Assembly (NCBI GenBank): GCA_016699975.1
Contig: CP064994.1
Coordinates: 65,222 to 129,221, forward strand
DNA: 64,000 bases
Direction of reading: 5' to 3'
DNA from: Candidatus Moraniibacteriota bacterium
Lineage (GTDB): Bacteria > Patescibacteriota > Minisyncoccia > Moranbacterales > UBA1568
Shown here: piece after piece, positions 1,235 to 40,330 of the stretch
Layout of the letters: every line of letters starts with the position of its first letter
How positions within the stretch are numbered: position 1 is the first letter of the stretch
The notes under the pieces: generated by a model
What the model saw: the letters and a program-made list of their open reading frames with translations, nothing else
Told to the model about the DNA's origin: nothing
Database searches by the model: none
Translations under genes and position numbers: made by a program

Positions 1235-1329
1235 ACTCCTCTCCCAAAAAGGAAAGAAGTTCCCCGAGCAAGTTCACATAGGGGTCATTTTGTTTTCGAG
1301 AGAAGCGCCACGCATGCTATAATGTGCCC

Positions 1330-1572: not shown

Positions 1573-1585
1573 TACTCCTCCCTTC

Positions 1586-2257: not shown

Positions 2258-2308
2258 AACCTGGCCGCTTCTCGGATACACTGCGAACGTTATCCGTAGT
2301 GTATTGCT

Positions 2309-3028: not shown

Positions 3029-3097
3029 CAAATATCCTTCCTTTCCCTTGCCCCGAAAGAGAGAAATGAATATTTTTGACTCCCGAAAGAAAAATAT

Positions 3098-3587
3098 ATG
3101 CGCATCCTCGGTATTGATCCTGGAACGGCGACCGTAGGATGGGGCATTCTCGAAGGAGACGGGGATCGAATGGTCGCCCTTGCCTACGGACACATTTCAA
3201 CGAGTCCCACACTCCCGCTTCCAGAGCGGATAGGCGAAATAGCACGTGACCTTCGAACCCTGTGTCGCCTTCACCATCCCGAAGAAGCCTCCGTCGAAAA
3301 AATATTCTTTTCAAAATCAAAAGACCGTGATTGCGGTGAGTCAAGCAAGGGGCGCTATTCTCTTGACGCTCGAAGAGCTTGGCATTAGGCTTTTCGAATA
3401 CACGCCGCTTCAGATCAAGCAATCACTCACAGGATATGGTCGCGCCGACAAACGACAAATGCAGCTCATGGTAAAAAGCGTTTTAAAACTCCATGAGATT
3501 CCCCGCCCCGACGACACAGCGGACGCGCTTGCAATCGCCCTCTGCCACAGAAACAGTCGCGCTATGAACACCATCCTCGGAAAGTAG
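3098..3587 (+). CDS. ruvC: Holliday junction resolvase RuvC (reading frame broken by +1 indel near 3313-3316)
   Basis: ORF 3098..3388 gives the RuvC N-terminus (MRILGIDPGTATVGWGIL). The C-terminal two thirds (KTVIAVSQARG...ADALAIALCH) reads in the next frame from about 3318. Removing one A from the A4 run restores FFSNQKTVIAV, which matches RuvC. Confidence 0.8.
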
Positions 3588-3589
3588 CC

Positions 3590-4471
3590 GTGCTGCGAAA
3601 AAGTTTTTCAAAATGCGACGAAAGAAACGCCTCTTCCCAGAATGACTCCGAAACACACTCACTTCCCTCTCCGTCTCGCGCGATCGAAAAGTTGCGACGC
3701 TCTCGAAGGAAGCCGTTTGCGAAAGAAGAATATTCCGCATCAAAAACATTTTTAGCAGCCTTCTCGAAAAATTTTCATCTTCCTTTATTTTCACGTTCCG
3801 AATCTATAACCTTGTTTCTTATGACGCTGCATCCCCTCTTTCTTAATTTTGTCGCCCAAGGAGTACCAATCGACACGATCCGCTATATTCTCATGTTTCC
3901 CCTCATCGTGACTTTAGTCGCCTTCTTTCGACAAGTCGTGGGTATCAAAGCGTTTGGTATTTATACGCCATCAATCGTCACGTTCGCATTTCTTGCATTC
4001 GATCCGGGCGGCCTCAAATATGGAGTCGCCATTTTTGTGAGCATCATTCTAGTCGGCATGCTCTCGCGACTTCTCCTTCGCAGACTCCGGATTCTCTATT
4101 TGCCGCGCGTCGCAATTTCTCTCACAATCGTCGCACTCGCCATTCTCGCCATTCTCGTCGCGGGCGGTTCACTTCATCGAACCGGCCTCGCTTCCGTTTC
4201 CATCTTCCCTCTCCTCATCATGATCACCCTTGTCGAAAAATTCGTTGCGACGCAAATCGAAAAAGGGGATAAAGTCGCCCTTATGCTTGCGGGCGAGACC
4301 CTTTTCATTTCCCTGGTCGGCTACTTCCTCGCGCGCTCGTCGACTATCGCAGAGTATCTCCTCGCCTTCCCCTGGATCGTCCTCCTCACGATTCCCGTCA
4401 ACATCTTTCTCGGACGATGGAGAGGACTGCGGCTCTCTGAGCTCTTGCGTTTTTCAAAGTTGCTGAAATAG
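3590..4471 (+). CDS. multi-pass membrane protein, 7TM_transglut-like (partner of RimK-like ligases)
   Basis: Six to seven predicted TM helices with an FRQVVGIKAFGIYTPSI-type motif recalling 7TM_transglut (PF14402). It abuts a RimK-like ATP-grasp gene. The N-terminal 77 aa are hydrophilic, so the true start may be the Met at 3821. Confidence 0.55.
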   Translation: MLRKSFSKCDERNASSQNDSETHSLPSPSRAIEKLRRSRRKPFAKEEYSASKTFLAAFSKNFHLPLFSRSESITLFLMTLHPLFLNFVAQGVPIDTIRYILMFPLIVTLVAFFRQVVGIKAFGIYTPSIVTFAFLAFDPGGLKYGVAIFVSIILVGMLSRLLLRRLRILYLPRVAISLTIVALAILAILVAGGSLHRTGLASVSIFPLLIMITLVEKFVATQIEKGDKVALMLAGETLFISLVGYFLARSSTIAEYLLAFPWIVLLTIPVNIFLGRWRGLRLSELLRFSKLLK

Positions 4472-4511
4472 GAGTGGTGCCCTTCCGTTTTCATTTGTTG
4501 TTCTCTCGACT

Positions 4512-5939
4512 ATGATCCCCCTCCTCGAAGCATGGAAAAAAAGTCGCGATATTCTGGGCATGAATGCGCGGAATCTCGATTACCTTCGCCCATACAACAA
4601 AAAGCGCGCCAAGCGATTCGCAGACGACAAAATAGCCTGCAAGCGCCTCCTCGCAAAAAACGAATTGCCGGTTCCCCTCCTCATCGCGCGCATCAAAACA
4701 CTCGATGATCTTGAAAACTTCGACTGGTCAAAACTTCCCGAGAGCTTCGCCCTCAAACCGAATCATGGATTCGGCGGCGAAGGCATTCTCGTCGTATACG
4801 GAAAAAAGAAAAATGAAGAACACACCTGGATTAAAGCGGACGGCTCCCTCATCCGCGTCGAGGATCTGAAAACGCATATTCGAAATATTTTGGACGGTTC
4901 ATTCTCTCTCGCAAACATGCCAGACTCGGCATTTTTCGAAGAGCGCCTCAAGCTCCTCAAACTCTTCAAGCCCTATTCGTGGAAAGGGATCCCCGACATT
5001 CGTGTTATCGTCTTTAACCGCGTCCCGGTGATGGCGATGCTTCGCCTCCCCACCAAAGAGTCAGGCGGGAAAGCGAATCTTCAGCACGGAGCCCTTGGAC
5101 TCGGTATCGATATGGCAAACGGCACTACAACGAGTGCTGTTCAGGGGTTCGGCGGCTTCGCGCGCTCAATAGACTGTGTCCCCGGCACGCGTCTCGTTCT
5201 CTCGGGTATCCGCATTCCTTTCTGGAAAGAAATTCTCCGTCTTGCAGTCGAGGCCCAAAATATTTCGGGACTTGGCTACCTGGGCGCCGACATCGCGATC
5301 GACCGCGACCGCGGCCCGGTCTTCCTGGAATTAAATGCGCGACCCGGACTTTCCATTCAACTTGCCAACCTCGACGGACTCAAGGGTCGCCTAACGCGCG
5401 TTTCGGGACTCAAAGTGAAGACGGCGGAGAAGGGGGTGCGAATGGGCATGGATCTCTTCGGCGGTGAAATCGAGGAAGAGATCGAGGAAATCTCCGGCAA
5501 GAAAATTATCGGCACCGTAGAGAAAGTAAAACTCATCGGCAAGAACGGAAAAGAAATCGAAGTCGAAGCCAAAATAGACACCGGCGCCGACTCTACCTCC
5601 ATCGACACGGAGCTTGCGAGAGAGTTGGGGTTTGGGGAAGTTATGAATTTCTTTGAAACTATTCCAAAGCCGGAAAATACAGAGAATCGCTCAACTCTTA
5701 GCGCACTCTCTGCGGAGTACGATCAAAAATATAAGCACGCTCATCCAGATCTTTCCGGCGTCGTTTTTGTATATGCTCCGAACGGCTTCACAATGAGACC
5801 AAAGATTCTCATCTCATTCTTTCTCCATGGTGCTGAGGTATCTTCGAGGGTAAGCATCATTGAAAGATCCCGCATGCAATACCCTATAATAATAGGACGG
5901 AGAGATCTCAAGAAATTTCTCATCGATTCAAATAAATAA
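4512..5939 (+). CDS. RimK-like ATP-grasp ligase (alpha-L-glutamate ligase-related) fused to C-terminal retropepsin-like PF05618-type domain
   Basis: The N-terminal MIPLLEAWKKSRDILGMNARNLDYLRPYN... matches the RLAN/TIGR02291 pattern, and ATP-grasp motifs are present (KPNHGFGGEGI, ELNARPG). The C-terminal domain carries DTGA (KIDTGADSTS) and a terminal YPIIIGRRDLKKFLID, typical of the RimK-associated retropepsin-like putative protease. Confidence 0.75.
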   Translation: MIPLLEAWKKSRDILGMNARNLDYLRPYNKKRAKRFADDKIACKRLLAKNELPVPLLIARIKTLDDLENFDWSKLPESFALKPNHGFGGEGILVVYGKKKNEEHTWIKADGSLIRVEDLKTHIRNILDGSFSLANMPDSAFFEERLKLLKLFKPYSWKGIPDIRVIVFNRVPVMAMLRLPTKESGGKANLQHGALGLGIDMANGTTTSAVQGFGGFARSIDCVPGTRLVLSGIRIPFWKEILRLAVEAQNISGLGYLGADIAIDRDRGPVFLELNARPGLSIQLANLDGLKGRLTRVSGLKVKTAEKGVRMGMDLFGGEIEEEIEEISGKKIIGTVEKVKLIGKNGKEIEVEAKIDTGADSTSIDTELARELGFGEVMNFFETIPKPENTENRSTLSALSAEYDQKYKHAHPDLSGVVFVYAPNGFTMRPKILISFFLHGAEVSSRVSIIERSRMQYPIIIGRRDLKKFLIDSNK

Positions 5940-5985
5940 GGGGCTTGAGAGTGCCTCTTATTCGAATTTAGCGGAAAGGTATTTT

Positions 5986-6915
5986 ATGAAAGTCTTATTT
6001 CTTCTTGGCCATCAATCAGCCAATAACCATTCAAAAAAATTCCAGAGTAAATTCAGAGATTTTTTTCAATACGCAAGCGAAAGAACTTCTATAAAATTTT
6101 ATATATCAAATATTGAAGACTATGATACGAAACAAAAGCTGTTCTCTCATGCATTTGTAAGAAAATGGAATTCGTGGGACAAAGAGTTCCTTGTAAAGCC
6201 AGATATTATTTACGATAAAACATCGTACTTCCTTTCTCAGAAAAATTTAATGGAAATAAAAGAGGATATTTCTCAAAATTTTCGCTTCCTCAACCCATTG
6301 GAATTCAATAGAATTCTTACTGATAAGTGGGAGACGTATACTGTCATTCCGGATATACATCCGAAAACCATTCTCTTTCAAGAGAACGATGACTCGAAAA
6401 AAATCTTGGATATATCATCTTCATTAGTTGTGATAAAGCCACGATACGGATTCGGTGGAAAAGGCGTCACTGTTTCAACAAAAGAAAATTTCAAGCCAAT
6501 AAAAACTCCTTTCATCGTGCAGGAATTTATCGAAACTAGTGCCGGCATACCAAACATAACAAAGGGTCGCCATGACCTTCGAATATTCCTCAAAAATGAA
6601 ACTCCATTCTACTCAATAATACGCTCCCCTCAAAAAGACCCTTATATCGCAAACATAAATTTCGGTGGCGCATTGAAAGTAGTGCCGCTCGAGAAGATTC
6701 CGAGATCAGCATTCAGAGTCATCAACACCATCAGCAAAACCTTTTCTCGTTTCCCTAAGAAGCTCTACTCAATCGATCTATTTTTTGATAGGAATCAAAA
6801 TCCTTGGGTGGTAGAATGTAATTCTCGTCCAGGAATCATCCTTCATAAGAGTGAGCTCCCTTATCGTGAATTCTATTACGATCACCTTCTTGATTTTTTT
6901 CAACAATCTCTATGA
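5986..6915 (+). CDS. second ATP-grasp family ligase (RimK/cyanophycin-synthetase-like)
   Basis: Motifs VVIKPRYGFGGKGV and VVECNSRPG are ATP-grasp hallmarks. The gene is AT-rich compared with its neighbours. An AGG-rich RBS precedes the ATG. Confidence 0.65.
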   Translation: MKVLFLLGHQSANNHSKKFQSKFRDFFQYASERTSIKFYISNIEDYDTKQKLFSHAFVRKWNSWDKEFLVKPDIIYDKTSYFLSQKNLMEIKEDISQNFRFLNPLEFNRILTDKWETYTVIPDIHPKTILFQENDDSKKILDISSSLVVIKPRYGFGGKGVTVSTKENFKPIKTPFIVQEFIETSAGIPNITKGRHDLRIFLKNETPFYSIIRSPQKDPYIANINFGGALKVVPLEKIPRSAFRVINTISKTFSRFPKKLYSIDLFFDRNQNPWVVECNSRPGIILHKSELPYREFYYDHLLDFFQQSL

Positions 6916-11698: not shown

Positions 11699-12292
11699 CT
11701 ATTGCTTCCGGAGGCTTTTAATCTCTTCTGTGAGCGACTGAACGAGGATCTCTATCTTCTCCAATTTTCGATCCGTCTCGGCTTTCTCATCCTTCTCTTT
11801 CCTTTCTTCTTCGCCGATATCTTCCACATCCTCCTGAATGCCATCCACGTCCTTCTGAATATCCTCGACGTCGTCCCCGATTTCTTCCACTTCTTTCTGA
11901 ATTCCCTCGACATCTTCGCCGATTTCTTCGACGTTTTCCTGAATCCCTTCAATATCTTCGGAAATGTCTTCTACATCTTCGCGAATATCTTCGATATGTT
12001 CGTGCACCTCGGTAATGTCTTTTGCCTGACGATTCACAGTCATCTGAATAAAGATCGCGAGATAAATCGCCTCGAGCGAGACGAGTGTTGTGAGGAGAAG
12101 GAGAATTTGATCGAAAGAGAATCCGAAAAACGAAAGCGTAAAGATGCCCACAAAAAGAAACGTGTGCACAAGAAGCGACATCGGAGACCCAATAGAACGC
12201 GCAAACCGCTCCGCGCCTCGCTCAAGTGGCGAAGTTGCAAAGGGGGAGCGCTGCTCTTCTGGAAGTTTCGGTTTATCGAGTGGGTTCGACAT
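11699..12292 (-). CDS. DUF1003 family membrane protein with acidic tandem-repeat C-terminal tail
   Basis: The two-TM core FDQILLLLTTLVSLEAIYLAIFIQMTVNRQAKD matches the DUF1003 signature (FDPYPF..LNL.LS.EAA..AP.ILMSQNRQ). The tail consists of about seven imperfect 8-aa repeats (EDVEDIxx). Confidence 0.6.
   Translation of the reverse strand: MSNPLDKPKLPEEQRSPFATSPLERGAERFARSIGSPMSLLVHTFLFVGIFTLSFFGFSFDQILLLLTTLVSLEAIYLAIFIQMTVNRQAKDITEVHEHIEDIREDVEDISEDIEGIQENVEEIGEDVEGIQKEVEEIGDDVEDIQKDVDGIQEDVEDIGEEERKEKDEKAETDRKLEKIEILVQSLTEEIKSLRKQ
11806..12000 (-). repeat. 24-nt period imperfect tandem repeats (coding, acidic octapeptide repeats)
   Basis: Repeating units of the form gatatcttccacatcctcctgaat... 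encode E/D-V-E-D-I repeats within the DUF1003 gene. Confidence 0.5.
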
Positions 12293-12322
12293 AGAAACAG
12301 TCTATCACGACTCTCTCTCCGG

Positions 12323-12360
12323 AAAAACAAAAAAGAGGAGATCGAACCACCGATCTCCTC
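12323..12360 (-). terminator. rho-independent terminator on minus strand (10-bp stem GAGGAGATCG/CGATCTCCTC followed by U-run)
   Basis: On the minus strand the hairpin is followed by TTTTTTGTTTTT. It lies just downstream of the small membrane-protein gene ending at 12374. Confidence 0.5.
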
Positions 12361-12373
12361 GAAACCTTCACCC

Positions 12374-12601
12374 TTACAGTACGTTCATTGAACTCACTGC
12401 AAGGGTGATAACATACCCCGCAATCCATGCGAGAATCCTCCCTATCAACGTCTCTTCTCGATCGGCGACGATAATGCCAATCGAGCAAAGCGCCCAGGAA
12501 GGGAGAAAAAATACTGACTGGTCGTGCGGCATTACTATTTCCAAAATTACCGCGATGACCACGTAGGGGAGCGCTTCCAGCGCACCCCAGATTATTTTCA
12601 T
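12374..12601 (-). CDS. small membrane protein (hypothetical, 75 aa)
   Basis: A strong SD (AGGAGGCGGAAATG) precedes the ATG, and there are two hydrophobic helices. Confidence 0.45.
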   Translation of the reverse strand: MKIIWGALEALPYVVIAVILEIVMPHDQSVFFLPSWALCSIGIIVADREETLIGRILAWIAGYVITLAVSSMNVL

Positions 12602-12677
12602 TTCCGCCTCCTCTCGTATCCCAACCCGGATATTGGGACACTCCCCAAAGAACATTCGCGACTCCGGCGCGAAAAAA

Positions 12678-13019
12678 CTACTTCTCCTGCTCCGACAACT
12701 CCCCGACATCCGCCGGTTTATCGTTAAAGCAGTTTTCCTCCACCCAGCACTTCCTGTGCACGGGAGTGAGTGGACCAAATATTGGCCCGTCTTCCGCAAG
12801 CAAAATATCTCTCGCGGATTCAAAACTCCTGTATGGCGGGCATATCCTCCTTGCCGCATGCTCCCGCACAGTTGGGCCGATATTTCCGACCGCCTGTCCA
12901 GTAACTGCATACACGAGGCTACTCGCGTATGCAAACCATTCAACATCCGATTTCATCGGATATTTTTCACGAGCAGCTTGGACCGCTCGCAAAAATAAAA
13001 TGCTTATGTCATCATCCAT
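12678..13019 (-). CDS. hypothetical protein (113 aa)
   Basis: An AAGGAGGG SD sits 7 nt upstream of the ATG. No recognisable domain. Confidence 0.45.
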   Translation of the reverse strand: MDDDISILFLRAVQAAREKYPMKSDVEWFAYASSLVYAVTGQAVGNIGPTVREHAARRICPPYRSFESARDILLAEDGPIFGPLTPVHRKCWVEENCFNDKPADVGELSEQEK

Positions 13020-13031
13020 TGCATTCCCTCC

Positions 13032-13355
13032 TTACTTGCCGCCAAACTTCTTCGCAAGGGCGGCGAGCAAATCCGCGGAAGCCGGTTTCTGCCCTCCTTC
13101 CTCCTGAGGATTCGGGAGCGGATTCATCCCTGCTTGCCTCCGAATTCGATCAATTTTCTCCCTTTCTTTCGGATCTTTCGGAGGAAGCTTGTCCAGTTTC
13201 CCGTTTACCAGACGGAACCCGCAATCCGTTGCGCGAGCGCGAATATCTTCCATGATCGCTTCCGCCCACTCGGCAAGTTCCGCCGAATATTCTTTCTCGT
13301 CTTCCGGGGACTGCCAATACGAGCGGAGAGGAAACTCTTTTAGAGTCTCATCCAA
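13032..13355 (-). CDS. hypothetical protein (107 aa)
   Basis: Protein-like composition, and it lies in the same minus-strand operon. No recognisable domain. Confidence 0.4.
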   Translation of the reverse strand: MDETLKEFPLRSYWQSPEDEKEYSAELAEWAEAIMEDIRARATDCGFRLVNGKLDKLPPKDPKEREKIDRIRRQAGMNPLPNPQEEGGQKPASADLLAALAKKFGGK

Positions 13356-14809
13356 CTCATACAGGTCAGCCCGAACTCCATAAAAATATTTCTCGCCTCT
13401 TCAAAGGCGCGAACCGCCCTTTCATGGGCTGTGTTGGCAGCTTCCCAGCCTGCGACAATTCCCTGCCGGCGCGAAACTTCCAGCTCATACGCCTCCTTGC
13501 CTTCGCGGAGAATCTTCTCAATAATTCTCTCGCAAGCCTTTCCATAGGCGCTCTCCCATTTTTCCCGATCGGACTCGGGAACAAATTTGAGGCACCCGCG
13601 GTATGGGTTGTTGCGAGCAAGCTCACGGATCTCCTTCCGGGCATACTCACTCGCCTGCTCGAGAATTTCCCGAGCTCCCTGGAGCATCCCTTCTTCACTC
13701 ACTTCCTGAGAGAAGAAAAGTTTCTGCCGTTCTTCTCCGGAAAGCCCCCAGGAGATTACTCGCCTGGTCACCCAGGTCTCGTAACACCCCCCAGACCGAA
13801 ACCCATCATCGGACTCCGGATAACTCACCCACTGTCGAGATGAAACGGTTTCCATACCGATTTCCCCTGGAGCCTCGAAAGACGCTCGTTCCTTCTCCGC
13901 TTCGAACAGTTTCCGTACCGGTTCGGTTACGGAGAAAGTTTCTTCCGCCGCCTGTTCCGGCGACGGAATCGAACGCCTCATTCTTTCCGCGATTTCTCGC
14001 TGTTCGGCCGCCGGAACAAGTTCCCAGAGCTTGTCCGGACAACTAATCCAGGACCCTCGACCCGAGAGAACCTCGGGGGAGAAAGTCACCTCCGGAAACC
14101 GGCATAACCGGAATGTTCCGGTTATGCTAATTTCATTTACGGGGTTCCATCCTTCCGGGACCTTGGAAAGCGTACCCGGCACATACTCCGCCTCCCACGC
14201 CCGAGTCGCCTCTTCCCAGGAAAGGCGCTTTTCTCCGGGGAGTTTCGGCTCATCTAGTCCAACCCCTCCATACAGGAGGCGGTTCGGATCCATACACCGA
14301 TCGCCGACTCCATTCCAAAAAAATCGAACAGTGTTGTGCTTGCTCGATTCCGTCCGGTCAGGCAGACCGAAAAGCGCAAAGACTTTCCAGGGATCTGGTC
14401 CCTGGAAAACCTCGCGTCGATCCTTGACTTCCCGATACTGGCGGTTTTCCTCTGGTTCATTGGTAGGCGTCCCGCCTAAGTGGGACCAATCTTCGAATCC
14501 TTCTTCGACGCACCGCCATTCATGGCGGCGGAATCCGGAAATCGGTTCGCCGACCGCTATCCAACCAAACCGAGCTGGCCGGATCGGCCTTACAAAGAGA
14601 ACTCCTTTCCTCTCACCCGGCTTCGTTTCCCCAGTAATCTCCACAAGGAAGAGCCGATTTTCTTCCAGCTCGATACCCTTCGGGTTCCCCCGATTGGCGC
14701 GATCGACAAAAACGATTTTTTTAGGGACATCGCCCGCTTGAATTGTCCCTTTCCATCCATCATTTCCATTCGTCCACAAAATAAGTGCGATTTTTTTCAC
14801 GTTCACGAG
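13340..14809 (-). CDS. large hypothetical protein (~490 aa)
   Basis: A GTG start is preceded by GGAGGAG. Minus-strand composition is protein-like, whereas the overlapping plus-strand ORFs are S/R/P-rich antisense artefacts. No recognisable domain. Confidence 0.5.
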   Translation of the reverse strand, partial: LVNVKKIALILWTNGNDGWKGTIQAGDVPKKIVFVDRANRGNPKGIELEENRLFLVEITGETKPGERKGVLFVRPIRPARFGWIAVGEPISGFRRHEWRCVEEGFEDWSHLGGTPTNEPEENRQYREVKDRREVFQGPDPWKVFALFGLPDRTESSKHNTVRFFWNGVGDRCMDPNRLLYGGVGLDEPKLPGEKRLSWEEATRAWEAEYVPGTLSKVPEGWNPVNEISITGTFRLCRFPEVTFSPEVLSGRGSWISCPDKLWELVPAAEQREIAERMRRSIPSPEQAAEETFSVTEPVRKLFEAEKERASFEAPGEIGMETVSSRQWVSYPESDDGFRSGGCYETWVTRRVISWGLSGEERQKLFFSQEVSEEGMLQGAREILEQASEYARKEIRELARNNPYRGCLKFVPESDREKWESAYGKACERIIEKILREGKEAYELEVSRRQGIVAGWEAANTAHERAVRAFEEARNIFMEFGLTCMSWMRL

Positions 14810-14953
14810 AAAACTCCTCCGCGTTTTTAAAAAAACAGACAACTCTCTCCGCCTTCGATTGTTTTTGAAGTAATCAAAGGCGAGGTTGAGCGGGGAGGGA
14901 TGCGATATCACTGTATGCACCCTCCCTCCCGCTAGTACAGATCTAATCTGGCG

Positions 14954-15751
14954 CTACCGGTATTTCGGTGCGCCCCTAACTGTCCCTGTTTCTTTCCAGC
15001 TGCCGTCTTCTTGTTGCTCGAAGACGGCATACATTTGTTTGCCAAAATCATAGCAAACCCCCACCCTTTTTGATCCGAGTGGGGATGGGATCAATTCTAT
15101 GTTTCCGTTTCCGGGGTTACCCTTCCCCGAATGACGGAGGAATGCTTCCAATCCCCGAGTATTCCATTCCTCCCAAATGGGTCGCATCCTATCGACGCCT
15201 TCCTGCGCCTCCTGGAGGGACTTTGCTCGGACACTCCAGTCCGAGAAAACTTCCTGCTCTAGAGTAACCAATACTACAGAGTCATCATCGAAGTAAGCAC
15301 GGATGCTCACTCCAGGGATCGTCGCCATCACCCTTTCTCGGAGCACTTCGACTTCTTCTTCCCTTTTCTTTTCCGCGTCGGCCTCCTCTTGCTCCGCACT
15401 CTTGTAGAAACGGACACGGCCCGGATTGAAATTTTCGGGAAGAATTACCCCCTCCCCAAATCCATTCCGCCACTGAAATTCATAGATTATGATGGCGTGA
15501 GGAATCTTGTTATGCAACTCCTTTGCCTCCGTTTCGCCAAATCTTCCAAATTTGGCATAAATTACAGTGTAACCCTTGAGATCAATTCCCTCCAGCCCCT
15601 GCTTTGGCAGGATAGCTTCCGGCATGCTCTCTTTTGAGAGGCAAACTGTAACCGCTTCTCCCTTACGACGAAACTTAATACTTAATTTCCATCTTTTCTC
15701 TCCTTCAATTTTAAGTAATAAAGAAATTGAAACAAAAAAATTCCACCACAT
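14954..15751 (-). CDS. hypothetical protein (265 aa)
   Basis: Long minus-strand ORF lying 36 nt downstream of the shared ~70-nt repeat. No recognisable domain. Confidence 0.5.
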   Translation of the reverse strand: MWWNFFVSISLLLKIEGEKRWKLSIKFRRKGEAVTVCLSKESMPEAILPKQGLEGIDLKGYTVIYAKFGRFGETEAKELHNKIPHAIIIYEFQWRNGFGEGVILPENFNPGRVRFYKSAEQEEADAEKKREEEVEVLRERVMATIPGVSIRAYFDDDSVVLVTLEQEVFSDWSVRAKSLQEAQEGVDRMRPIWEEWNTRGLEAFLRHSGKGNPGNGNIELIPSPLGSKRVGVCYDFGKQMYAVFEQQEDGSWKETGTVRGAPKYR

Positions 15752-15786
15752 TAACCTAACCGTTTCCGTTAAAATTAATGTGGGTT

Positions 15787-15856
15787 GAATTTTTAAAGAA
15801 CTTCTTCCTCCGAACCTTCAAATCAAATACTTTGAAGATTCTATTGGAAGGAGGAG
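15787..15856 (-). repeat. ~70-nt promoter-like repeat, copy A (upstream of gene 14954..15751)
   Basis: About 80% identical to copy B. Conserved blocks AAAGAACTTCTTCCTCCGAACC and TTGAAGATTCTATTGGAAGG flank a variable hairpin. On the minus strand it reads TTGAAG...N18...TTTAAAAAT. Confidence 0.5.
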
Positions 15857-15977
15857 CCATGCTATGTACTCCTCCAAAAAAATCAAACGTTTTCACGCAC
15901 ATTTTTTCTCGAAGCCGTGCGCAGGCTCCGCTCCTCCCGCGTCTGTCTCACCACAGTCGCGAAAAGAAGATTTTGGA

Positions 15978-16898
15978 CTAGCGGGTCATCATGACCCGCA
16001 TCGCCCTCAATACAAGGGCGATTCGCTCCACTTCGGCAGCGCGCTGGAACGCGCCACCGAAGCCTTCAAGAACAACCAGCGCCGGGCGCTTGTTGTTGGT
16101 CGCTTCCTGCGACCATCTTTCCTGGCAAACGGCGCGAAACTTCAGCGCCATTTCATCATCCTTGAATCCCACCTGGATTCGCCCTTTTTCAGGGCGGGTC
16201 CAGATGGCCCATTTATTTCCCTTGGCCGATTCGGCCAAGACACAATCTCCGCGATCCCCTTCGTACACCTTTTCTCCGTGTACGATGGAAATTTCCTGGG
16301 AAACGTTTAAAGGGCTTCCCGCCCTTTTTAACCATTTCTCAAAGATCTCCTTTTTCTGCAGAGTATCAATCTTCCAGGGCCCACCGCAGTGGGCCTTCAG
16401 AATCACTCGGCGATCCTCAAGTGGTACGATTTCTTCTCCTTGGAGAATCGCTTTTTCCATAGCGAGAAGTGGGTCCTCCTCCTCGCCGGCAGCCCGACGG
16501 GCTGCTGCTTCCATGCAGATTCTTTCCGTCACGGCATCCATGCCGTCGGGGTCGACGAGCCGAATAAGTCCCTGAACTGACTCCGGCGCGACCTCAATGG
16601 CCGCATCGAAAATATAATCCTTGTCAATAGCAAGGTGGGGGCACTCCAGCTCCAACAAACTTTGTATTTCGGGGGTCATATCGACTCCCCCCTCATTGTC
16701 CAGGGAGATCAGGCTCTCTCCGGATAAAAATCTCCCAACCTCTTCTTGGTAGTCGGAATACTCTTCTCTCGAAAAAACAATTTCTTGGAAATTTAGAGCC
16801 ACTTTCTTTCTCCTCTTCTTTGGAGTTTGAACCCTTCCTGCCATGGCGGACAGTGCTGAAGGGCTGCCGAAGAATTCGACGCACGACTTTGGAAACAT
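15978..16898 (-). CDS. hypothetical protein (306 aa)
   Basis: Long minus-strand ORF lying 36 nt downstream of copy B of the repeat. No recognisable domain. Confidence 0.5.
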   Translation of the reverse strand: MFPKSCVEFFGSPSALSAMAGRVQTPKKRRKKVALNFQEIVFSREEYSDYQEEVGRFLSGESLISLDNEGGVDMTPEIQSLLELECPHLAIDKDYIFDAAIEVAPESVQGLIRLVDPDGMDAVTERICMEAAARRAAGEEEDPLLAMEKAILQGEEIVPLEDRRVILKAHCGGPWKIDTLQKKEIFEKWLKRAGSPLNVSQEISIVHGEKVYEGDRGDCVLAESAKGNKWAIWTRPEKGRIQVGFKDDEMALKFRAVCQERWSQEATNNKRPALVVLEGFGGAFQRAAEVERIALVLRAMRVMMTR

Positions 16899-16934
16899 CC
16901 TTTCAAAACCCCGCGTCGAATTCTTGGCTTTCTC

Positions 16935-17004
16935 GAATTTTAAAGAACTTCTTCCTCCGAACCCTCAAACATGTTTCAGATTGAAGATTCTATTGGAAGG
17001 GAGA
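16935..17004 (-). repeat. ~70-nt promoter-like repeat, copy B (upstream of gene 15978..16898)
   Basis: Same conserved blocks as copy A, with the same 35-36 nt spacing to the start codon. Confidence 0.5.
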
Positions 17005-18819
17005 GCGAAAATTCCATTTTCGCTCTCCACATTCGCATGAACTTTCGATGGCATCCCTTTTGTAAGAGCCTTCTACTCATTCATACTTCCCGGCAAGTCA
17101 GTCCGGGCTTCTTTTTTTCCTCGTCCATTTGGGGACGGGTCCGGACTCCTCGCCGGCACAGGCGGCCTTTCTCCAGGCGCGCCACTCAAACAGGATGTCT
17201 CTTCGCTCTGGAGACACACTTGCTTGAGTGACGTACCTATTTCTTTCTCTCCTTTGTAATCGGAACTGCTCCGATCTTCGGACAGCGAAGAAACCTCCGC
17301 ACTGTCCGAAGACCAAAACATACTTCCCAAACAAAGAAATTGAGAAATATTCAAAGAACAGGGACCAGACCTTCTGTGGAAACTCTTTTGCTTTCACAAA
17401 AGAACCTCCATTGAAGGGGCAAGAGAGATTCCATCTCTTCTTGCCCGTAACCTTTCGTGCTCGTCCATGAGCACATATTTTGGCTTTGCGATCGGATCGC
17501 TTCCGAGGGCATCACCCCCCACCCCTCAAAGCCCGAGGTTCTCCGGTTTCTCGTTAACCGGCATCGCCACTCCTCGACCGCCCGATGTCCGGCGGCCTCA
17601 AATGGAGTTTCCCCACCTAACCTAGTTGATGACTCGGTACTCGATGAAGAGAAAAGTCGCTTTCGCGATTTCCTCTTCCGAGTACTCGTGGCGATCAGTG
17701 AGACGTGGAAGACCACGTACTCCCATGACCACCACCGAGTCACCGACCTTGACCACTACGCGCGGCGGCGCTTCGCGTCGATCGTTGGCTTGTGGCTTGG
17801 GTTCAAGCAGGATTCAACACCCTGCGAAACCACAGCCTTGGCCTCATCGACGCTCAGCAGTCGACGTTCGATGGTTTTTGCACCATCGAACATCGAGTCG
17901 GCGAGGGCAAAACCAAAGAAAATTTTTTTCATGGTTTTCTGCCTCTCACTCGTTCCAGAAAGCAACGTGCGCACTTCACCATGATCCGATCATGACTTAT
18001 AGCGCTTCCTCGAAACCTCCGAGGGTTACCCTCCAAAACAAGTGCAAACCGGAGCCCTCACAACGCGCGAGCCTCATACGCGCTCGGTTTTCTGAAAAAC
18101 CGAGAAAATCCGCTATTAATATAATGAAAAGAACAAAAAAAGCACTCTCAAAGGAATGCTTTTTGCAAGATATCTTGAGCAGCTAAACATGACTAAAACC
18201 GCCCAAGAAAGATCTTGCAAGAAATCTTCCTGTGGTTTGTCATGTTTAAAAAATTTCAAGGAACGAAAGCTGATCATCAACCTCTCTTCGAATACGCTTC
18301 CAAATATCTTTTCGTTTCCGAAGACATTCCTCGTGACGAAAGCTGGTTAGACTTCATCGCGAGACGATGTCTTGAGAAAGACTCAAAGAATCGTTCGAAT
18401 CGTGGCGCATTCGGAACGGAGGTACTCGCATGCTATTTGAAACGCCGCGCTGGACGCTTTCGGGATTCTTTCGAAATCCCCTACATGCAAGGACGCTCAC
18501 ACCTCCTGGTGACGGCCCCGGAAACAGCCTGCCACTGAAGCGGCGCTTCTCTACGGAACCTCGCCCAATTCTCTCAGTGTTTTCCTTCGCTCGTCTTGTT
18601 CGTCCATCTTCCATTCGATCTCCCTCCTCGCGAGAAACGGATCGAACGAATACGAACAAGATCGGAAGCGAAATGGAACGCTTCCCGGAACGTTGCCAGA
18701 AAGAGATATGCAAGCGAGGTCGAAGAGAAACGCGCGATCGGGAAGGACAAAGAGAAAAATCATATCCTCCGATTCCCGGCATCCTCATCGTTTCACCTGC
18801 AAATCCCTGTTCAGCAGAA

Positions 18820-19075
18820 AAAGTGTCAATGTGCCTTTTCTTATTCTTCTTCTCTCTTGCGTCACATCCCGACTTCTGTTCCCCTTTTCTTTTTTCATCG
18901 TGACACGCCAGTATATATCAAGAATTTACTTTTGTCAATTCTTTGTGTCATTTATACCATTTTCTCTCATTTTTAAACTATTGAAGAGAATTTTTTTGGC
19001 TTTATATATACTTTTATGTGTCACGTAATTTTGACATTAGAAGAGATTTTTGCTAGCATAAAAGTGTCAAAATTT
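18820..19075 (+). promoter_or_regulatory. cluster of GTGTCA / TGTCAC-N8-TGACA palindromic motifs upstream of TrmB-family regulator
   Basis: At least seven GTGTCA/TGACAC copies, including the palindrome TGTCACGTAATTTTGACA at 19019-19036. Candidate operator for autoregulation. Confidence 0.35.
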
Positions 19076-19089
19076 AAAGAATACTCCCT

Positions 19090-19905
19090 ATGTATGCCTC
19101 TTCTCTCGAGCACATCGGGCTCCGGCCCGAGCAGGCTCTCATCTACGAATCGCTCATGAAATCGGGTCCGTCTTCGGCAGGAGAAGTGCACAAAGCCGTC
19201 CCCCTCAAGCGCGGACTCGTCTACAAGGTGCTCGACGAGCTGGTGCTTCTTGGTCTCGTAGAGAAAAAGAGGGTGGAAACAGAAAAAACCATTCGATTCG
19301 AGGTGTGTCATCCGCTCAAGCTCAAAGCGTTTTCGGAGCGGCGCGAAACAGAAGCAAAAAACGCCACCCTCGCGCTCGAAGGCGTTCTCCCCTCTCTTAT
19401 CTCCGACTATAATCTGGTTTTGGGACAGCCCGGCGTACTAGTGTTCGAAGGACTAAGCGGCGTAAAAAAAGTGCTCGAAGACAACCTTGATCACAATCCG
19501 GAGAAAAAAATTTTTACCTTTTCTGACCTGGACGGATATACAAAATACCTCACCGACTGGAACAAGTGTCACTATGCCCCCAAGCGAAAGCGTCTTGGTA
19601 TTTATGAAAAGGCGCTTGTCTCGAATACCGAACAAGCGAGAGAATTCCTCAAAAACTATGAAGCGAACGAATTTACGGAAATACTTCTTATCGATTACGC
19701 GCGCTACCCCATGAAAACAGAGGTGAATATCTATAGCGGAAAAGTATCATTCGTTACTTTTTCGGAAAATTCCCTCATCGGCGTCATTATCGATAACCGA
19801 GAAATTCATGACACCCTTCTTACAATTTGGAAACTTGCCTGGGACTTGGGGCGAAAATCATTTGCTGAACTCCAACCCTCATGGACCCAGCGATTCGGAG
19901 CCTGA
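19090..19905 (+). CDS. TrmB-family (winged-helix) transcriptional regulator
   Basis: N-terminal HTH LGLRPEQALIYESLMKSGPSSAGEVHKAVPLKRGLVYKVLDELVLLGLVEKK is typical of TrmB, and the C-terminal domain is TrmB-like. Confidence 0.7.
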   Translation: MYASSLEHIGLRPEQALIYESLMKSGPSSAGEVHKAVPLKRGLVYKVLDELVLLGLVEKKRVETEKTIRFEVCHPLKLKAFSERRETEAKNATLALEGVLPSLISDYNLVLGQPGVLVFEGLSGVKKVLEDNLDHNPEKKIFTFSDLDGYTKYLTDWNKCHYAPKRKRLGIYEKALVSNTEQAREFLKNYEANEFTEILLIDYARYPMKTEVNIYSGKVSFVTFSENSLIGVIIDNREIHDTLLTIWKLAWDLGRKSFAELQPSWTQRFGA

Positions 19906-20031
19906 GATGCCCCTCGAAGACTCTTCAGAATCCAATGATCAATCTTTCTTACTCTTTTATTTTTTTTCGAGAAATTTTCATCACCCTGCTACAAATATCT
20001 ATCCTGAGGCGGAGCAAAAAACTGAAACCAC

Positions 20032-22296
20032 TTATGTCGTCTCGCCAACCGAGGGCTTCACGATATGTTTTTGTACGAAACGAAGAAGATCTCCAAGCGT
20101 TTCTGAACGGCGCAGCTCATCGAGAAGTTCCCTGCGCGTCTCTCGCATATTCTCTGAGGAACTCTCTGGCATATCGCTCAAGACTCGAAAGAAATGTATG
20201 AGAAGCGGCAGAACCACAGACTTCGCATATTCTTGTTGCTCTTTGGCAGGGAGCGTCAGTACTTTTCCTGAAATGAATCCTTCCGACGAAGCAATCACCT
20301 GATCTTCGAGCATTTCCATTCCCGCAGCAGGAAAATATGTGCTATAGGGTTCTCGAAAAGAGAGCTTTGTTTGTTCTTCGCCCGCCTTTCCCGAACGCCA
20401 TCCGAAACTTCGTGAATCCGTGGGTGCTACGAGAAACGAGAAGGCCAGTTTTCTCTTTTCAGATTTCGTGAGTATTCCCTGGAGAATCGGCCTCCGAACA
20501 GATAAAAGTGCCTGAGCGGCAGAAGATTTGTAGACTTGTCCACAGACGCTCCGACGGAGCGCCGGGTCGTTATTGAGCCTGTCCTGAATCGCTTCAAGAA
20601 TATCTTTCAATAGTGGCAACAGTTTTTCGTGTTGGTGCACATCAAAAAAATCTACATCTGGCATTTTCTCATGAGCGACTTCTTCGAGATGCTCAAGGAG
20701 CGCCGCCAGAATATCATACCGCGCTTCGTTGGGATGACTCACCTTCATCCCACGTATCGTAAGAATCGCCGCGATTTCTTCGAGAGCGTACGGAAGAAAT
20801 TTTTTCCGCTCTTCTTTTGAAAGGGGCGACGATCGTTTTTCGGAAAGAAGGGGGTTCGAAACCAGTTGACCAAAAGCATGTGCCCAAACGGGGGTTTCCG
20901 AAAGCTCGAACAGAAGTTTCCGGTATCGTTCAAATTGTTCACGTTTTTCCCCCGAAAGAAACGCCTCTGACGAAACAAATTCAAGATTATCGAGATGAAA
21001 CGCCTTTTTCATTCGTTCGTATCGCTCGAGTTCGACACGTGAGACGGCGCGAGCAGCATCAAGCGACTCTTCCCGCGTCATACCGTGGAGTGCCTCATAG
21101 TTCCAGGCCTGCGTTTCTGCGAAAAGAGGAATCGTAATCGGTCGCCCCTCCGACTGCAACCAAAAAAGAAAATTATAGAGATCAATCGGTTTTTCGCTTT
21201 GGCCTTCCCCATCGAGAACTTTTTTCCACTTGAACCATTCTTTAGAAATACCGAACGGAAAATATATTGGTTTGTCCGTTTCTGGAATTTCTGATTTCCG
21301 ATGTCTTACTTCGTTTTCAAAGTCCGAGAGAAATCCCTTGGGGAGGGTCGCGGATTCTCTTCCATACAACAATTCTTCCGATTTGTAGCGAACATGTCGG
21401 AGAAGCGTCTTGGCCGTCTCAAGCTTCTTCATAATTTCGGTGAATCGGCTTGTATTTTCATCCTTCCCTCCAATTCCATGTTCGAGAAAAAATCGGAATT
21501 CATCAATGAGTGACGCCACTCCTTCTTCGTCATAAAATTTCCCGGGAATCCAGCTTTCCTCATCGAAGAGTTCTCCTTCCATAAATTCATTCTCTTTCAT
21601 CTCGACCTCATCCATATCATCCCACTTCCCAACTCGCTGCTTCTCTTCCTTTTCCAAGAGAAGCGTTTTATTTCTTCGCTCAATCATCCACCGGTTGAGT
21701 TCAATTCTTTTCCTGGTTATTTCATCAAAGAGGCTCTTGAGTCGATTCATCGTATTCTTCATTTCAAAGAGCAGCGATTTGCGCGCCCTGATATCCGTCT
21801 CTATTTCTTCAGTAATCTTCTCTGCATCAATCGGAAGTTCGGAATGCAGGCGATCTTTCACCTCAAGAAAAATCGCGTTCGACTTTGCCAGAAAAGCGCC
21901 CGGCAGCCGATCTTGAATCCCGAACTCAAATGGAAAAATCTCCCGGAAAATTTCTGAGAACTCTTGTGTCCAACCCATTGAGGCGTCTGCAAACTCAACA
22001 TATTTAGCAAAGACGGAATCGGCTGCTCCTTGCGAGAGTCGCTCACCGATCTCAAGAATAACGTCTCCCATTTTTTCACCACCCTCCTCAAGAGAAAGGA
22101 AAGACTGAAGACGATCGTGAGCATTGCCATGTGCCAGAAAATCCCGTACACGGTCCGCTTCCGCTTCACTTTTTTCGAACAAAAAATTGAGAAATTGCAC
22201 CTGGGTTCCCACAGAAAAATCCTCGAGCGCTATTCCAAAATGATCCTCGATTTTTTTGCGGAATAGTGGCTCAAGCAGAGTTGAATAGAGGGTCAC
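20032..22296 (-). CDS. large hypothetical protein (754 aa)
   Basis: Long ORF with a 26-nt overlap onto the upstream 325-aa ORF, forming an operon. No recognisable domain. Confidence 0.55.
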   Translation of the reverse strand: MTLYSTLLEPLFRKKIEDHFGIALEDFSVGTQVQFLNFLFEKSEAEADRVRDFLAHGNAHDRLQSFLSLEEGGEKMGDVILEIGERLSQGAADSVFAKYVEFADASMGWTQEFSEIFREIFPFEFGIQDRLPGAFLAKSNAIFLEVKDRLHSELPIDAEKITEEIETDIRARKSLLFEMKNTMNRLKSLFDEITRKRIELNRWMIERRNKTLLLEKEEKQRVGKWDDMDEVEMKENEFMEGELFDEESWIPGKFYDEEGVASLIDEFRFFLEHGIGGKDENTSRFTEIMKKLETAKTLLRHVRYKSEELLYGRESATLPKGFLSDFENEVRHRKSEIPETDKPIYFPFGISKEWFKWKKVLDGEGQSEKPIDLYNFLFWLQSEGRPITIPLFAETQAWNYEALHGMTREESLDAARAVSRVELERYERMKKAFHLDNLEFVSSEAFLSGEKREQFERYRKLLFELSETPVWAHAFGQLVSNPLLSEKRSSPLSKEERKKFLPYALEEIAAILTIRGMKVSHPNEARYDILAALLEHLEEVAHEKMPDVDFFDVHQHEKLLPLLKDILEAIQDRLNNDPALRRSVCGQVYKSSAAQALLSVRRPILQGILTKSEKRKLAFSFLVAPTDSRSFGWRSGKAGEEQTKLSFREPYSTYFPAAGMEMLEDQVIASSEGFISGKVLTLPAKEQQEYAKSVVLPLLIHFFRVLSDMPESSSENMRETRRELLDELRRSETLGDLLRFVQKHIVKPSVGETT

Positions 22297-23248
22297 ACGA
22301 AGCGACGCTTCTGAGTCTTCTTTGTTTTTTTGAGAAAAGCCCTCGCTTTGAAGCTATCTCTTCGACCGACACCTTCTTCACCGGTTTTCTTTTTCCGGAA
22401 AGCGAAGCAGCGTCATCGGGAGTGAGCTCGAAGAAGAAGTCAACGCGGAATTCCGGCGTATACAAAACGGCAAAACGGTCACTCACTCGGCTTACCGTTC
22501 CCCAGAGTTTATGCGGATCTTCGCGTATCAAACCTTTTTCTCGATCCTCTTCCAGCACAGGAAGATCATACTCTTGAGAAATTTTTGGCTCATGAAATCG
22601 TTCGAATGCTTCTGATCGCTCTTCGTGCTTAAAAAAATCAAAACTTTCTTTCCGAAAAGCAGAAAAAAGTGTTTCTACATTTCCTGGTTCCTTGAGAATC
22701 GCCTCCGCACTCCACGAGAGATCTCCTCCCACATTGGCATATTCCTCCGGAAGGACGAACACTTCCACATAGTCCCAGTTCTTTTCCAAAAAAGATCGCT
22801 TTTCCTCAAGACTCCAATGATCCAATTGGTCATGCCGAAGCGCCCCTTCTATCCAAAATCGAACCAATGCGCTTTTTGTTTGGGATCCAATTTCTTCGAG
22901 CGCCTGTTTCCCTTCCTCCAAGAAATTAAGCGCCATTTCTTCATACGAGAAATCTCGAATATCAGAAATAATTTCTGCGGCCTTCAGCGCGACAAGCGAA
23001 TCTTTCTTGTGATCTCGCCAGACGCGAAGAACTTCTTGAAATTCTTCTTCGGAAAAATCGTAGAGGAAATCCCGCGTCGAAAGATCCTTCAAAATTTGAA
23101 GTGCTTCTTCGCGAGACTCTTCTCTTCGCGGATTTTCTTGCGCGACGGGCTCTTTCTTTTCTTCTCTGGGAGAGGATTCCCGAGTCGAACCTTCCAAAGC
23201 CGTCGCGCTCTCTTTTTCAAAAGAAAATCTGGGACTCATACCACCCAT
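22271..23248 (-). CDS. hypothetical protein (325 aa), acidic
   Basis: Long ORF with a Glu-rich N-terminus. No recognisable domain. Confidence 0.5.
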   Translation of the reverse strand: MGGMSPRFSFEKESATALEGSTRESSPREEKKEPVAQENPRREESREEALQILKDLSTRDFLYDFSEEEFQEVLRVWRDHKKDSLVALKAAEIISDIRDFSYEEMALNFLEEGKQALEEIGSQTKSALVRFWIEGALRHDQLDHWSLEEKRSFLEKNWDYVEVFVLPEEYANVGGDLSWSAEAILKEPGNVETLFSAFRKESFDFFKHEERSEAFERFHEPKISQEYDLPVLEEDREKGLIREDPHKLWGTVSRVSDRFAVLYTPEFRVDFFFELTPDDAASLSGKRKPVKKVSVEEIASKRGLFSKKQRRLRSVASCDPLFNSA

Positions 23249-23353
23249 TGTACCATCCTCACTTCTTTCTCGAGAAAATATTTTTTTCTTTACTCAAATC
23301 TGCTGCGTGTGAAGGAGTCTATTCAAGAGCACTCTGAATCGAGCTCTACATTT

Positions 23354-23692
23354 TCACCCTGCATACTCGTGAGAGACTTTTATTTCGAGAACGGCAGAGC
23401 CAGCAGAATCGGTGAGTCGCTCCAAAAGTTCGGGAGCGAAAAGACGCATTTCCTCGGCCCAGAGACTCGACTTCGCCTTCAGGAAGAGTTTGCCGTCACG
23501 AAAAAACGAGGGCCGAACCATGGCCGCCCCACGCTTCCCGTACTCTTCCTCGAGCACTTTGGAAACGAGAAAAAAAATCGTTTTCTCATCGATTTTTTTG
23601 GTGGTGCGACTTCGGAGCGCGGTATCAATCGGAACTCCTTCCGCGCGCTTCGTCACGTATTTCGAACTCAAAAATTTCCCCAGTGATTTCAT
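23354..23692 (-). CDS. DUF721 (DciA-like) protein
   Basis: The pattern LWAEEMRLFAPELLERLTDSAGSAVLEIKV fits the DUF721 signature, and the gene sits immediately downstream of dnaN. Confidence 0.6.
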   Translation of the reverse strand: MKSLGKFLSSKYVTKRAEGVPIDTALRSRTTKKIDEKTIFFLVSKVLEEEYGKRGAAMVRPSFFRDGKLFLKAKSSLWAEEMRLFAPELLERLTDSAGSAVLEIKVSHEYAG

Positions 23693-23706: not shown

Positions 23707-24859
23707 TCACTTTTGAATCGGCATCATAATGTAGGTAAAGCCGGCCCGAAGAGGCGTATTGTCGGCATTTTTGAGAGCAACCGGTGTGCCAGAGGTATTC
23801 GCGAGAAATACGACCGTGTCGCTCTCGATGAACGACACGCCATCGAGCACCGCTTTGGGAGAGAAGACGGTGCGAAGTTGACCAGCACCGGATCGGGAAA
23901 GAGCGCGCACCTCGGCGCGTTGCTCCCCAACACCACTTCCCACCGCCTCAACGAGAACGAAATCTTCGCCCGAATCGGATCCGAGTTCGATAGCAACTTC
24001 GCCAGAAGAAAAAACGCTTGCAATGCGGAGCGCCCGTTGAAATTCGTCCCGATTGAGCTCCGCAGAAAATGAGAATTCCAGAGGCATAATCTGCCGATAA
24101 TCCGGAAACTTCCCAAGAATAAGGCGGAGAGTACCTCAACGCCATCGAGTTCGAAAAAATCTGATTCTCTTCGAGCGTCATGCGAATCATTTTCTGTTGA
24201 ACACCAATCGCTCGCGATACTTCAAGGAGGGTAGTCGAAGGGAGAATGAGTGAGCCTCCCGCGGAAAACGCTTCAAGAACTTCTGCTTCGAGGGGCGCCG
24301 AAAACGGAAGAATTTCTTCACTCAAACGAAAGCTATCAGTTGCCGCCAGACGAACCCGCTCTTTTTCAAAGAGAAAGTTGACTCCGGTGAGCTCGAGCCG
24401 CGTTTCTTGTGTCGCGACACAAGGCAAGAGCCTCGAAAGAGCGCGCTTCAGCGCTTCCGCCGGAAGTTCGGTCGCAACACCTGCCTTCTTTTGTGGCATG
24501 ATGGGAAACTCGCTCGCGGGAAGCCCCTTTATTTTCACCCGATATCCCGCGCACGAGACCGAAAGCGCCTGATCCTTTTCTTCGAGCGTCACGACTTCCG
24601 TCTCCGGCAAATTTACGACGAACTGCGAGAGAATTTTTGCTGGCACCGTAAGACTTCCTTCCCGCTCCACCTTGGCACCGACGCGAGCTACAACACCGAT
24701 CTCCAAATTCGTCGCCGAAAGTTTGAGTCGACCAGATTCCGTCTCGAGGAGAAAATTGCCGAGAATCGGGAGAGAGCTCTGTCGCCCCGTTACGCGCTCC
24801 GCATATCCGATCGCGCGTTTCAAATTTTCTTGCGTACAAACGAGTTTCATAGGGATCAT
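23707..24859 (-). CDS. dnaN: DNA polymerase III beta sliding clamp (frame broken by 1-nt indel near 24120-24130)
   Basis: The first ~240 aa (SLPILGNFLLE, VNFLFEKERVRLAATDSFRL) match DnaN domains I-II. Domain III (GKFPDYRQIMP...GFTYIMMPIQK) continues in another frame. Removing one C/G in the ctccgcc run restores the frame. Confidence 0.85.
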
Positions 24860-36299: not shown

Positions 36300-36302
36300 A
36301 GA

Positions 36303-40315: not shown

Positions 40316-40330
40316 ACAAAAAGATTGATT

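Follow-up and report, generated by a model that had tools for sequence, protein, structure and literature searches.

A lineage-specific insertion of orphan genes beside dnaN and dnaA in a Candidatus Moranbacteria genome

The genomes of the candidate phyla radiation (CPR, Patescibacteria) are small, many of their genes lack annotation, and how they take up accessory DNA is poorly understood. The question is raised in concrete form by a block of minus-strand genes at positions 12374-16898 of a 64,000-nucleotide stretch of a Candidatus Moranbacteria genome (Moraniibacteriota; CPR/Patescibacteria), here called the window, whose positions are used as coordinates throughout: what are these genes, and did they arise in this lineage or arrive from elsewhere? 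The host is identified by its PBP1A gene, the best matches of which are Candidatus Moranbacteria metagenome-assembled genomes with no more than 77% protein identity. An earlier note made from the sequence alone had described the block as six genes of no recognisable family with raised guanine-plus-cytosine (GC) content, and had suggested an acquired island with a defence, toxin or other accessory system. The reading that on balance fits best is that the orphan cargo genes of the block form a lineage-specific island which was acquired, probably from a mobile element, and is now partly decaying. The genes of the block and the insertion of which it forms the left half are as follows.

12300-23400: lineage-specific insertion, between the DUF1003 gene (11699-12292) and the DUF721-like gene (23354-23692)
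15978-16802, minus strand: g1, 274 amino acids (aa), GTG start with AGGAG 7 nt upstream
14954-15751, minus strand: g2, family of about 245 aa, canonical ATG at 15692, long open reading frame (ORF) from the ATG at 15751
13032-14806, minus strand: g3g4, about 591 aa, a single gene interrupted in this assembly by the loss of one T from a run at about 13387
12678-13019, minus strand: g5, 113 aa, AGGAGG ribosome-binding site, no family match
12374-12601, minus strand: g6, 75 aa, three transmembrane helices predicted, ATG start with AGGAGG 6 nt before it
19090-19905, plus strand: TrmB-family helix-turn-helix regulator, divergent from the block and in the same insertion
20032-23248, minus strand: remainder of the insertion, with ORFs of 754 aa and 325 aa, both without a family match

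Synteny supports acquisition. The DUF721-like gene precedes dnaN and dnaA, and the backbone that runs from PBP1A through dnaN and dnaA to p260 is kept in more than 50 of 80 related Moranbacteria loci. The gap in this backbone is about 0.8 kb in most of the related loci. The four nearest relatives have a gap of about 3.9 kb, with about 2.6 kb between the DUF1003 gene and dnaN, compared with 11.6 kb in the window. These four carry PBP1A, DUF1003, a different TrmB-like gene, DUF721 and dnaN, and the TrmB gene of the window is not orthologous to theirs. None of g1-g6 was found in any of the 80 loci; the 325-aa ORF (p325) is likewise absent from them and the 754-aa ORF has one short match among them (41% over 94 aa, in L069). 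The comparison with relatives which the earlier note had proposed therefore finds conserved flanks around 11 kb of content that is missing from all 80 loci, and neither the housekeeping functions nor the conserved position that the note would have held against an island came to light. The locus is a concrete case of a variable insertion next to dnaA-dnaN in a CPR genome.

The block also stands out from its surroundings in composition and translation signals. Its GC content of 0.518, against 0.472 for the window, makes it the most GC-rich 4.5-kb stretch (99.5th percentile, about 1.9 standard deviations above the mean), and in tetranucleotide distance it reaches the 98th percentile, so that the deviation suspected earlier is real, though the contrast is modest. 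A Shine-Dalgarno (SD) motif precedes all five block starts: AGGAGG for g5 and g6, GGAGG for g3g4, and AGGAG for g1 and g2 at their true starts, which were revised together with others from homologues (g1 GTG 16802, g2 ATG 15692, g3g4 GTG 14806 or 14800, g6 ATG 12601). Outside the block the window has about 50 long ORFs, and 33 of them, those of PBP1A, UvrD and ComM included, show no SD-like motif, which upholds the description of AGGAGG-type sites as a rarity there. A host that seldom uses SD sites is plausible because the anti-SD motif is detected in just 48% of Parcubacteria 16S rRNAs (PMC9297842). Both outliers amount to a foreign signature of modest effect size, and SD sites in a largely SD-less host are a simple marker that could flag foreign DNA.

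All six minus-strand ORFs of the earlier note are present, but the number of genes is five, as the ORFs of about 490 aa (13340-14920) and 107 aa (13032-13355) are two parts of g3g4. L001 and L002, independent metagenome assemblies of this organism (more than 99.8% identical), have a run of six T residues at about 13387, against five in the window, and read both parts as a single 629-aa ORF. The more distant homologues P0002 (72% identity) and P0003 are also single ORFs with a conserved junction. The same organism is represented by four metagenome contigs that encode the exact g5 protein and are 96.7-100% identical to the window. The dnaN gene of the window (23707-24859) is split at a T6 run at about 24157 and its dnaA gene (25033-26561) at a T5 run at about 25689, both being intact in relatives. 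Because these essential genes are likewise frameshifted at homopolymers, the split of g3g4 is most likely an assembly or sequencing indel, and programmed frameshifting at the junction was rejected in view of the similar T-run lesions in dnaA and dnaN. Homopolymer indels in the assembly mean that gene counts and apparent pseudogenes in the window need careful reading.

The products of the block belong to no recognisable family, as the earlier note had supposed: Pfam, NCBIfam and PHROGs gave no match for any of them, and a search of PDB sequences left them unmatched. The recommended comparison with PADLOC-DB v2 (5027 models) matched none of g1-g6, the match of the neighbouring DUF1003 coiled-coil protein being coiled-coil noise only. 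No toxin or immunity domain was recognised with Pfam or NCBIfam, no enzymatic or toxin domain emerged by sequence or by fold, a nuclease or NTPase included, and scans of IMG/VR returned nothing. For g3g4 there are three matches among 5.8 billion proteins and no relatives in 185,579 GTDB species genomes. An exhaustive profile search brought in 33 distant relatives with 17-33% identity (alignment A4), and the A4 profile returned only the three close relatives from the index of 5.8 billion proteins. The relatives share the motifs FGxPD, PGE, YxESxDGYRxAGSYE and EWxxRY; many of the distant ones are extended at the C-terminus by a further module, together with either a basic tail (..KFGKKR) or a zinc ribbon, and none has a Pfam domain. 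Three homologues of g1 were found, and the g6 homologue is a protein of 78 aa with 40% identity, encoded at another position in the island of the contig L005. The searches place g1, g2, g3g4 and one g6 relative in tiny uncharacterised families confined to Patescibacteria and phage-like contigs. The ratios of nonsynonymous to synonymous substitution rates (dN/dS) are 0.11-0.24 for g1, the N-terminal part of g2 and the core and tail of g3g4 (0.11 among the g1 homologues, about 0.2 for g3g4), so the genes are real and under purifying selection within their families. Three uncharacterised protein families are thereby defined, two of which have confident predicted structures that are unmatched among solved or viral structures. 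The absence from 80 loci, the lack of a GTDB relative of the large protein, the SD sites and the modest deviation in composition together bear out the suggestion of an acquired island.

Outside this organism the genes of the block do not travel together. Homologues of g1, g2 and g3g4 occur singly and in different contexts, with no conserved unit. The g1 homologues in L088 and L089 lack g2-g6, the one in L088 adjoining DNA homologous to positions 32.6-33.2 kb of the window, and in eight metagenome loci a g2-like gene has housekeeping genes for neighbours and no other block gene beside it. The closest counterpart to the island is L005, where positions 877-6026 are collinear with 18373-13032 of the window, while cargo and flanks differ; the g6-like gene lies upstream in L005 and downstream in the window, and apart from this gene neither g5 nor g6 is found beside g3g4 homologues elsewhere. 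In L005 the g3g4 homologue P0003 (L005:4197-6026) is an in-frame chimera in which residues 23-158 of g2 (136 aa) are joined to g3g4 from residue 157 on. The chimera therefore points to an ancestral adjacency of g2 and g3g4 followed by a deletion, an adjacency deduced from P0003 alone. The alternative that the N-terminal domains of g2 and g3g4 are homologous and were exchanged between paralogues was rejected since hhalign detects no similarity between them, which makes P0003 a fusion. The block genes behave as independently shuffling cargo of mobile DNA rather than as a fixed operon.

Several of these homologues are found close to genes for mobility. In L096:1407-4777 and L099:2989-4092 a g2-like gene is followed by a conserved 367-aa protein without a Pfam match, and in L096 this protein is followed by a large serine recombinase (Resolvase, Recombinase, Zn_ribbon_recom) about 2.1 kb downstream of the g2-like gene. 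An IS3 transposase adjoins P0009, and the contig of the distant relative P0025 is phage-like, with PHROG matches of 1e-34, 4e-28 and 1e-15. L005 itself encodes at 1685-2845 a 386-aa protein in which a P-loop-like motif at the N-terminus (GPPHSGKS) is combined with a Cas_csx3 domain at the C-terminus (PF09620, E = 2e-18), and it has an AAA_14/DUF4143 ATPase at the far end of the contig.

Two of the genes carry lesions. All members of the g2 family begin with MEIK[FL]RRKGE, and in the window a 7-bp tandem duplication after codon 4 (ATTAAGT twice, 15686-15673) changes this to MEIKY followed by a stop codon; the duplication is real, because L001 has it too with identical DNA. Starting from the ATG further upstream, at 15751, a long ORF restores the frame at the price of a foreign N-terminal extension of about 22 aa. 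The g1 gene is without a segment of 33 aa (99 bp at 16637) that is found in L001 from the same species and in the distant homologues P0005 and P0006. Both lesions suggest a block in partial decay. The presence or absence of the 99 bp (L001:447-545) is in itself an in-frame polymorphism between assemblies of the same organism which are about 99.9% identical.

Upstream of g1 the block is preceded by a long stretch that is poor in ORFs, and both this stretch and the gene junctions contain elements with a bearing on how the block would be expressed.

18910-18938, minus strand: strong sigma-70-like promoter, TTGACA-17-TATACT, 11 of 12 positions, directed at the block
19031-19059, plus strand: promoter-like site of the TrmB gene, divergent from the block promoter
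18312-18373, minus strand: 62-nt hairpin, 97% identical to L005:877-938, predicted fold of -25.2 kcal/mol with a z-score of -3.4
17237-18311, minus strand: ORF-poor core, no supported ORF; L005 has the 386-aa Csx3-domain protein at that position
17007-17236, minus strand: conserved non-coding leader, 230 nt, 75% identical to L005:3068-3294
16938-17006, minus strand: hairpin copy A, upstream of g1
15791-15857, minus strand: hairpin copy B, between g1 and g2
12335-12360, minus strand: intrinsic-terminator-like hairpin of 11 pairs, then TTTTTTG, just 3' of g6, closing the block

The ORF-poor flank reported earlier was found again, with no ORF of significant Pfam E-value between about 16900 and 19090. 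Rfam yields nothing there at gathering thresholds and, in E-value mode, no credible match, and no independent contig was found across it. A possible frameshifted DUF1874/B116-like gene at 17932-17618 was rejected because the sequence, once repaired, matches nothing in Pfam or the PDB. The leader is taken to be non-coding because its substitutions fall equally in all three codon phases and its indels are not multiples of three. The DNA around the 62-nt hairpin cannot be aligned between the window and L005; the element has no Rfam match and no copies were found beyond these two. The hairpins before g1 and g2 (about 68 nt) have arms, CTCCTTCCAATAGAATCTTCAA and TTTGAAGGTTCGGAGGAA, which are invariant in four copies, two in the window and two in L005, and loops that vary in sequence and in length (10-21 nt). 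The four copies are co-oriented and lie at gene junctions, and the junctions g2/g3g4, g3g4/g5 and g5/g6 have no hairpin. Neither an exact-pattern scan of viral and Joint Genome Institute (JGI) metagenome collections (0 matches) nor a covariance model run over 487 kb of related loci found more than the four known copies, and upstream of the g1 homologues in L088 and L089 there is at most a degenerate hairpin. Two island-specific hairpin elements are hereby defined. The contig L001 covers 17082-12305 of the window and so ends just outside hairpin A and just past the terminator, being the block alone, which may reflect strain-level variation in the flanks.

From these elements a course of events can be proposed. 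A phage-like or integrative mobile element would have brought in the genes, which would be transcribed on the minus strand from the promoter predicted at 18938-18910, with the divergent TrmB regulator possibly in control. Translation would be led by the SD sites, with a single terminator at the end, and the conserved-arm hairpins before g1 and g2 could act as punctuation at cassette junctions at the level of RNA or DNA. The largest product, g3g4, would bind RNA or single-stranded DNA through an S1/cold-shock-type domain with an oligonucleotide/oligosaccharide-binding (OB) fold, and may oligomerise through a long coiled coil.

The last two steps are drawn from predicted structure. The AlphaFold2 model of g3g4 (predicted local distance difference test score, pLDDT, 84) has an S1/OB-like beta domain at the N-terminus, then a middle alpha/beta region that contains the ESxDGYRxAGSYE motif, and long coiled-coil helices, one of them of 70 residues, with a basic tail that ends in ..LAALAKKFGGK. 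The Foldseek comparison suggested for the large product left it unmatched over its full length in the PDB and BFVD and gave a weak S1/OB-like similarity of the N-terminal domain only. Locally this domain superposes weakly on IF1 (3i4o; probability 0.8, target-normalised template modelling score 0.45) and on NusA S1, Rrp4 and viral S1-like proteins (probability 0.9-0.97). Two distant family members, P0016 and P0038, have a cold-shock-like GYGF domain in the place of the N-terminal domain, P0016 matching TmCsp weakly at E = 0.57. The likeness to the S1 and cold-shock OB-fold proteins (IF1, NusA S1, CspA) has its limits: the similarity is sub-threshold, and the other 450 or so residues of g3g4 match no known structure or family. 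The Foldseek E-values of 0.04-0.3 weaken the OB-fold assignment, and Pfam gives no S1 or CSD match. With moderate confidence g3g4 can be described as an OB-type nucleic-acid-binding head on a long coiled-coil body, and on the strength of this model it probably binds nucleic acid. The model of g2 is confident as well (AlphaFold2, pLDDT 92.5) and Foldseek finds for it no fold match in the PDB and no full-length match in BFVD.

Strain-variable genomic islands are the known systems which the block resembles most closely in the reading of an acquired island: it is inserted at an otherwise syntenic locus and missing from relatives, it deviates in composition and translation signals and shows signs of decay, and relatives of its cargo lie beside a serine recombinase and an IS3 transposase and on a phage-like contig. 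It differs from them in lacking an integrase, a tRNA target and flanking repeats in the window, and in having cargo families that are uncharacterised and nearly confined to Patescibacteria metagenomes. The following points weigh against an origin by acquisition from a mobile element. Searches with tblastn and blastn found no match in 50,697 phage records or in a plasmid collection. Among the scanned ORFs of the island Pfam and NCBIfam detect no integrase, transposase or other recombinase, there is no tRNA gene at the insertion, and its junctions show no direct or inverted repeats of at least 9 bp. The distant g3g4 relative P0019 lies by itself on a Patescibacteria contig of 396 kb, where its surroundings are ordinary chromosome without mobility genes. 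The GC excess is small, and since the PBP1A gene (0.513) and dnaN-dnaA (0.509) are as GC-rich as the block, composition alone is weak evidence. The genes g1 and g2 may be functional still, the deletion in g1 being in frame and the frame of g2 being regained from the upstream ATG. Transcription from the promoter, regulation by TrmB and the part played by the hairpins are predictions only. As a whole the locus is a fairly typical variable region of a CPR genome, unusual in its SD-bearing genes within a mostly SD-less host, its island-specific hairpins and the chimeric gene.

The rival that survives best, and that we nevertheless regard as unlikely, is that the block is an intact and functional accessory operon of a new kind, for instance anti-phage or nucleic-acid-targeting. 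TrmB would control a long leader transcript, with g3g4 serving as sensor or effector and g6 as a small partner in the membrane, and its RNA control or processing would take place at the hairpins. The divergent TrmB gene, strong promoter, long leader and single terminator do have the layout of an operon, the families are under purifying selection, and the hairpins and the 62-nt element are conserved. The exchange of N-terminal domains (S1-like, cold-shock-like or g2-type) resembles the swapping of sensor domains in defence proteins, and the homologous island of L005 has the Csx3-domain protein and the flanking AAA_14/DUF4143 ATPase. The block is comparable to anti-phage defence islands as defined by PADLOC and DefenseFinder in that its unknown genes form a variable island, in that domains are swapped as modules, and in the company kept by its relative in L005. 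It departs from these in that 0 of 5027 PADLOC models were matched, that there is no co-occurrence of g1, g2 and g3g4, which are found singly, and that no nuclease, NTPase or toxin domain or other enzymatic domain is recognised by sequence or fold. In addition g2 is disrupted at codon 5 and g1 is 33 aa short. The defence, toxin or other accessory system of the earlier note accordingly finds no support: there is no match in PADLOC, Pfam, NCBIfam or PHROGs, no conserved operon, and two genes have lesions.

A bolder proposal gives the hairpins the leading role. The island would then be a cassette platform restricted to Patescibacteria, in which recombination or RNA processing at the hairpins adds, removes and rearranges the cargo; this seems improbable to us. 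Its marks would be the nearly invariant 62-nt hairpin at its head, the conserved non-coding leader and the conserved-arm, variable-loop hairpins at cassette junctions. The orphan cargo would include modular OB-fold proteins with exchanged N-terminal domains, and the OB-fold protein g3g4 might itself recognise the hairpins. This interpretation is appealing and weakly supported, and if true the platform would be of a kind not described before.

Slightly less probable again is that the block consists of ordinary lineage-specific core genes which were never acquired and look like orphans through the poor sampling of CPR genomes. These genomes are indeed rich in hypothetical proteins, P0019 is chromosomal with no mobility genes near it, and the GC content of the block equals that of PBP1A and dnaA. 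However, the block is missing from the four nearest relatives, whose flanking genes have 70-77% protein identity, as well as from all 80 loci, its homologues occupy different genomic contexts and its SD use is unlike that of host genes. A reading as core or housekeeping genes is contradicted by synteny and largely refuted.

The least likely origin is an integron-like or other site-specific cassette array in which the hairpin is a folded single-stranded recombination site analogous to attC, since the features shared with integron cassette arrays and CALIN, which are clusters of attC sites lacking an integrase (co-oriented genes, four co-oriented imperfect hairpins at gene junctions with invariant arms and a variable centre, gene order and content reshuffled between the islands of the window and L005, and the breaks of L001 at about 17082 and 12305 near the block ends), are set against the lack of any integrase or recombinase, in particular an IntI-type tyrosine recombinase, among the scanned island ORFs, arms which on direct reading of the four copies are off the attC R''/R' and R/L box consensus (RYYYAAC...GTTRRRY; the nearest candidates, AAAGAAC and GTTCTTT, do not fit it), a hairpin at two of five junctions with none preceding g3g4, g5 or g6, at most degenerate hairpins at the g1 homologues of L088 and L089, and an element known from two islands only, with no further copies in 487 kb of related loci, the viral collection or the JGI metagenomes.

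Beyond the island the window contains a few other features worth recording. In the DUF1003/DUF948 membrane protein gene that borders the insertion, tandem repeats of 21 bp at 11808-11992 encode (E/D)DIxEDVE heptads, and it is chiefly in this repeat region that the related strain L003 differs from the window. A second cluster on the minus strand at 35154-49245 is made up mostly of unannotated large genes (898, 758 and 439 aa), with a TraG/VirB4-like P-loop ATPase at 42228-44033. Several of its genes have SD-like motifs, unlike the housekeeping genes, and the cluster may be another foreign or secretion-related region. The kilobase at 49001-50000, about 23 kb from dnaA, has the lowest GC content (0.328) and coincides with the minimum of the cumulative GC skew, and could be a replication origin or terminus.

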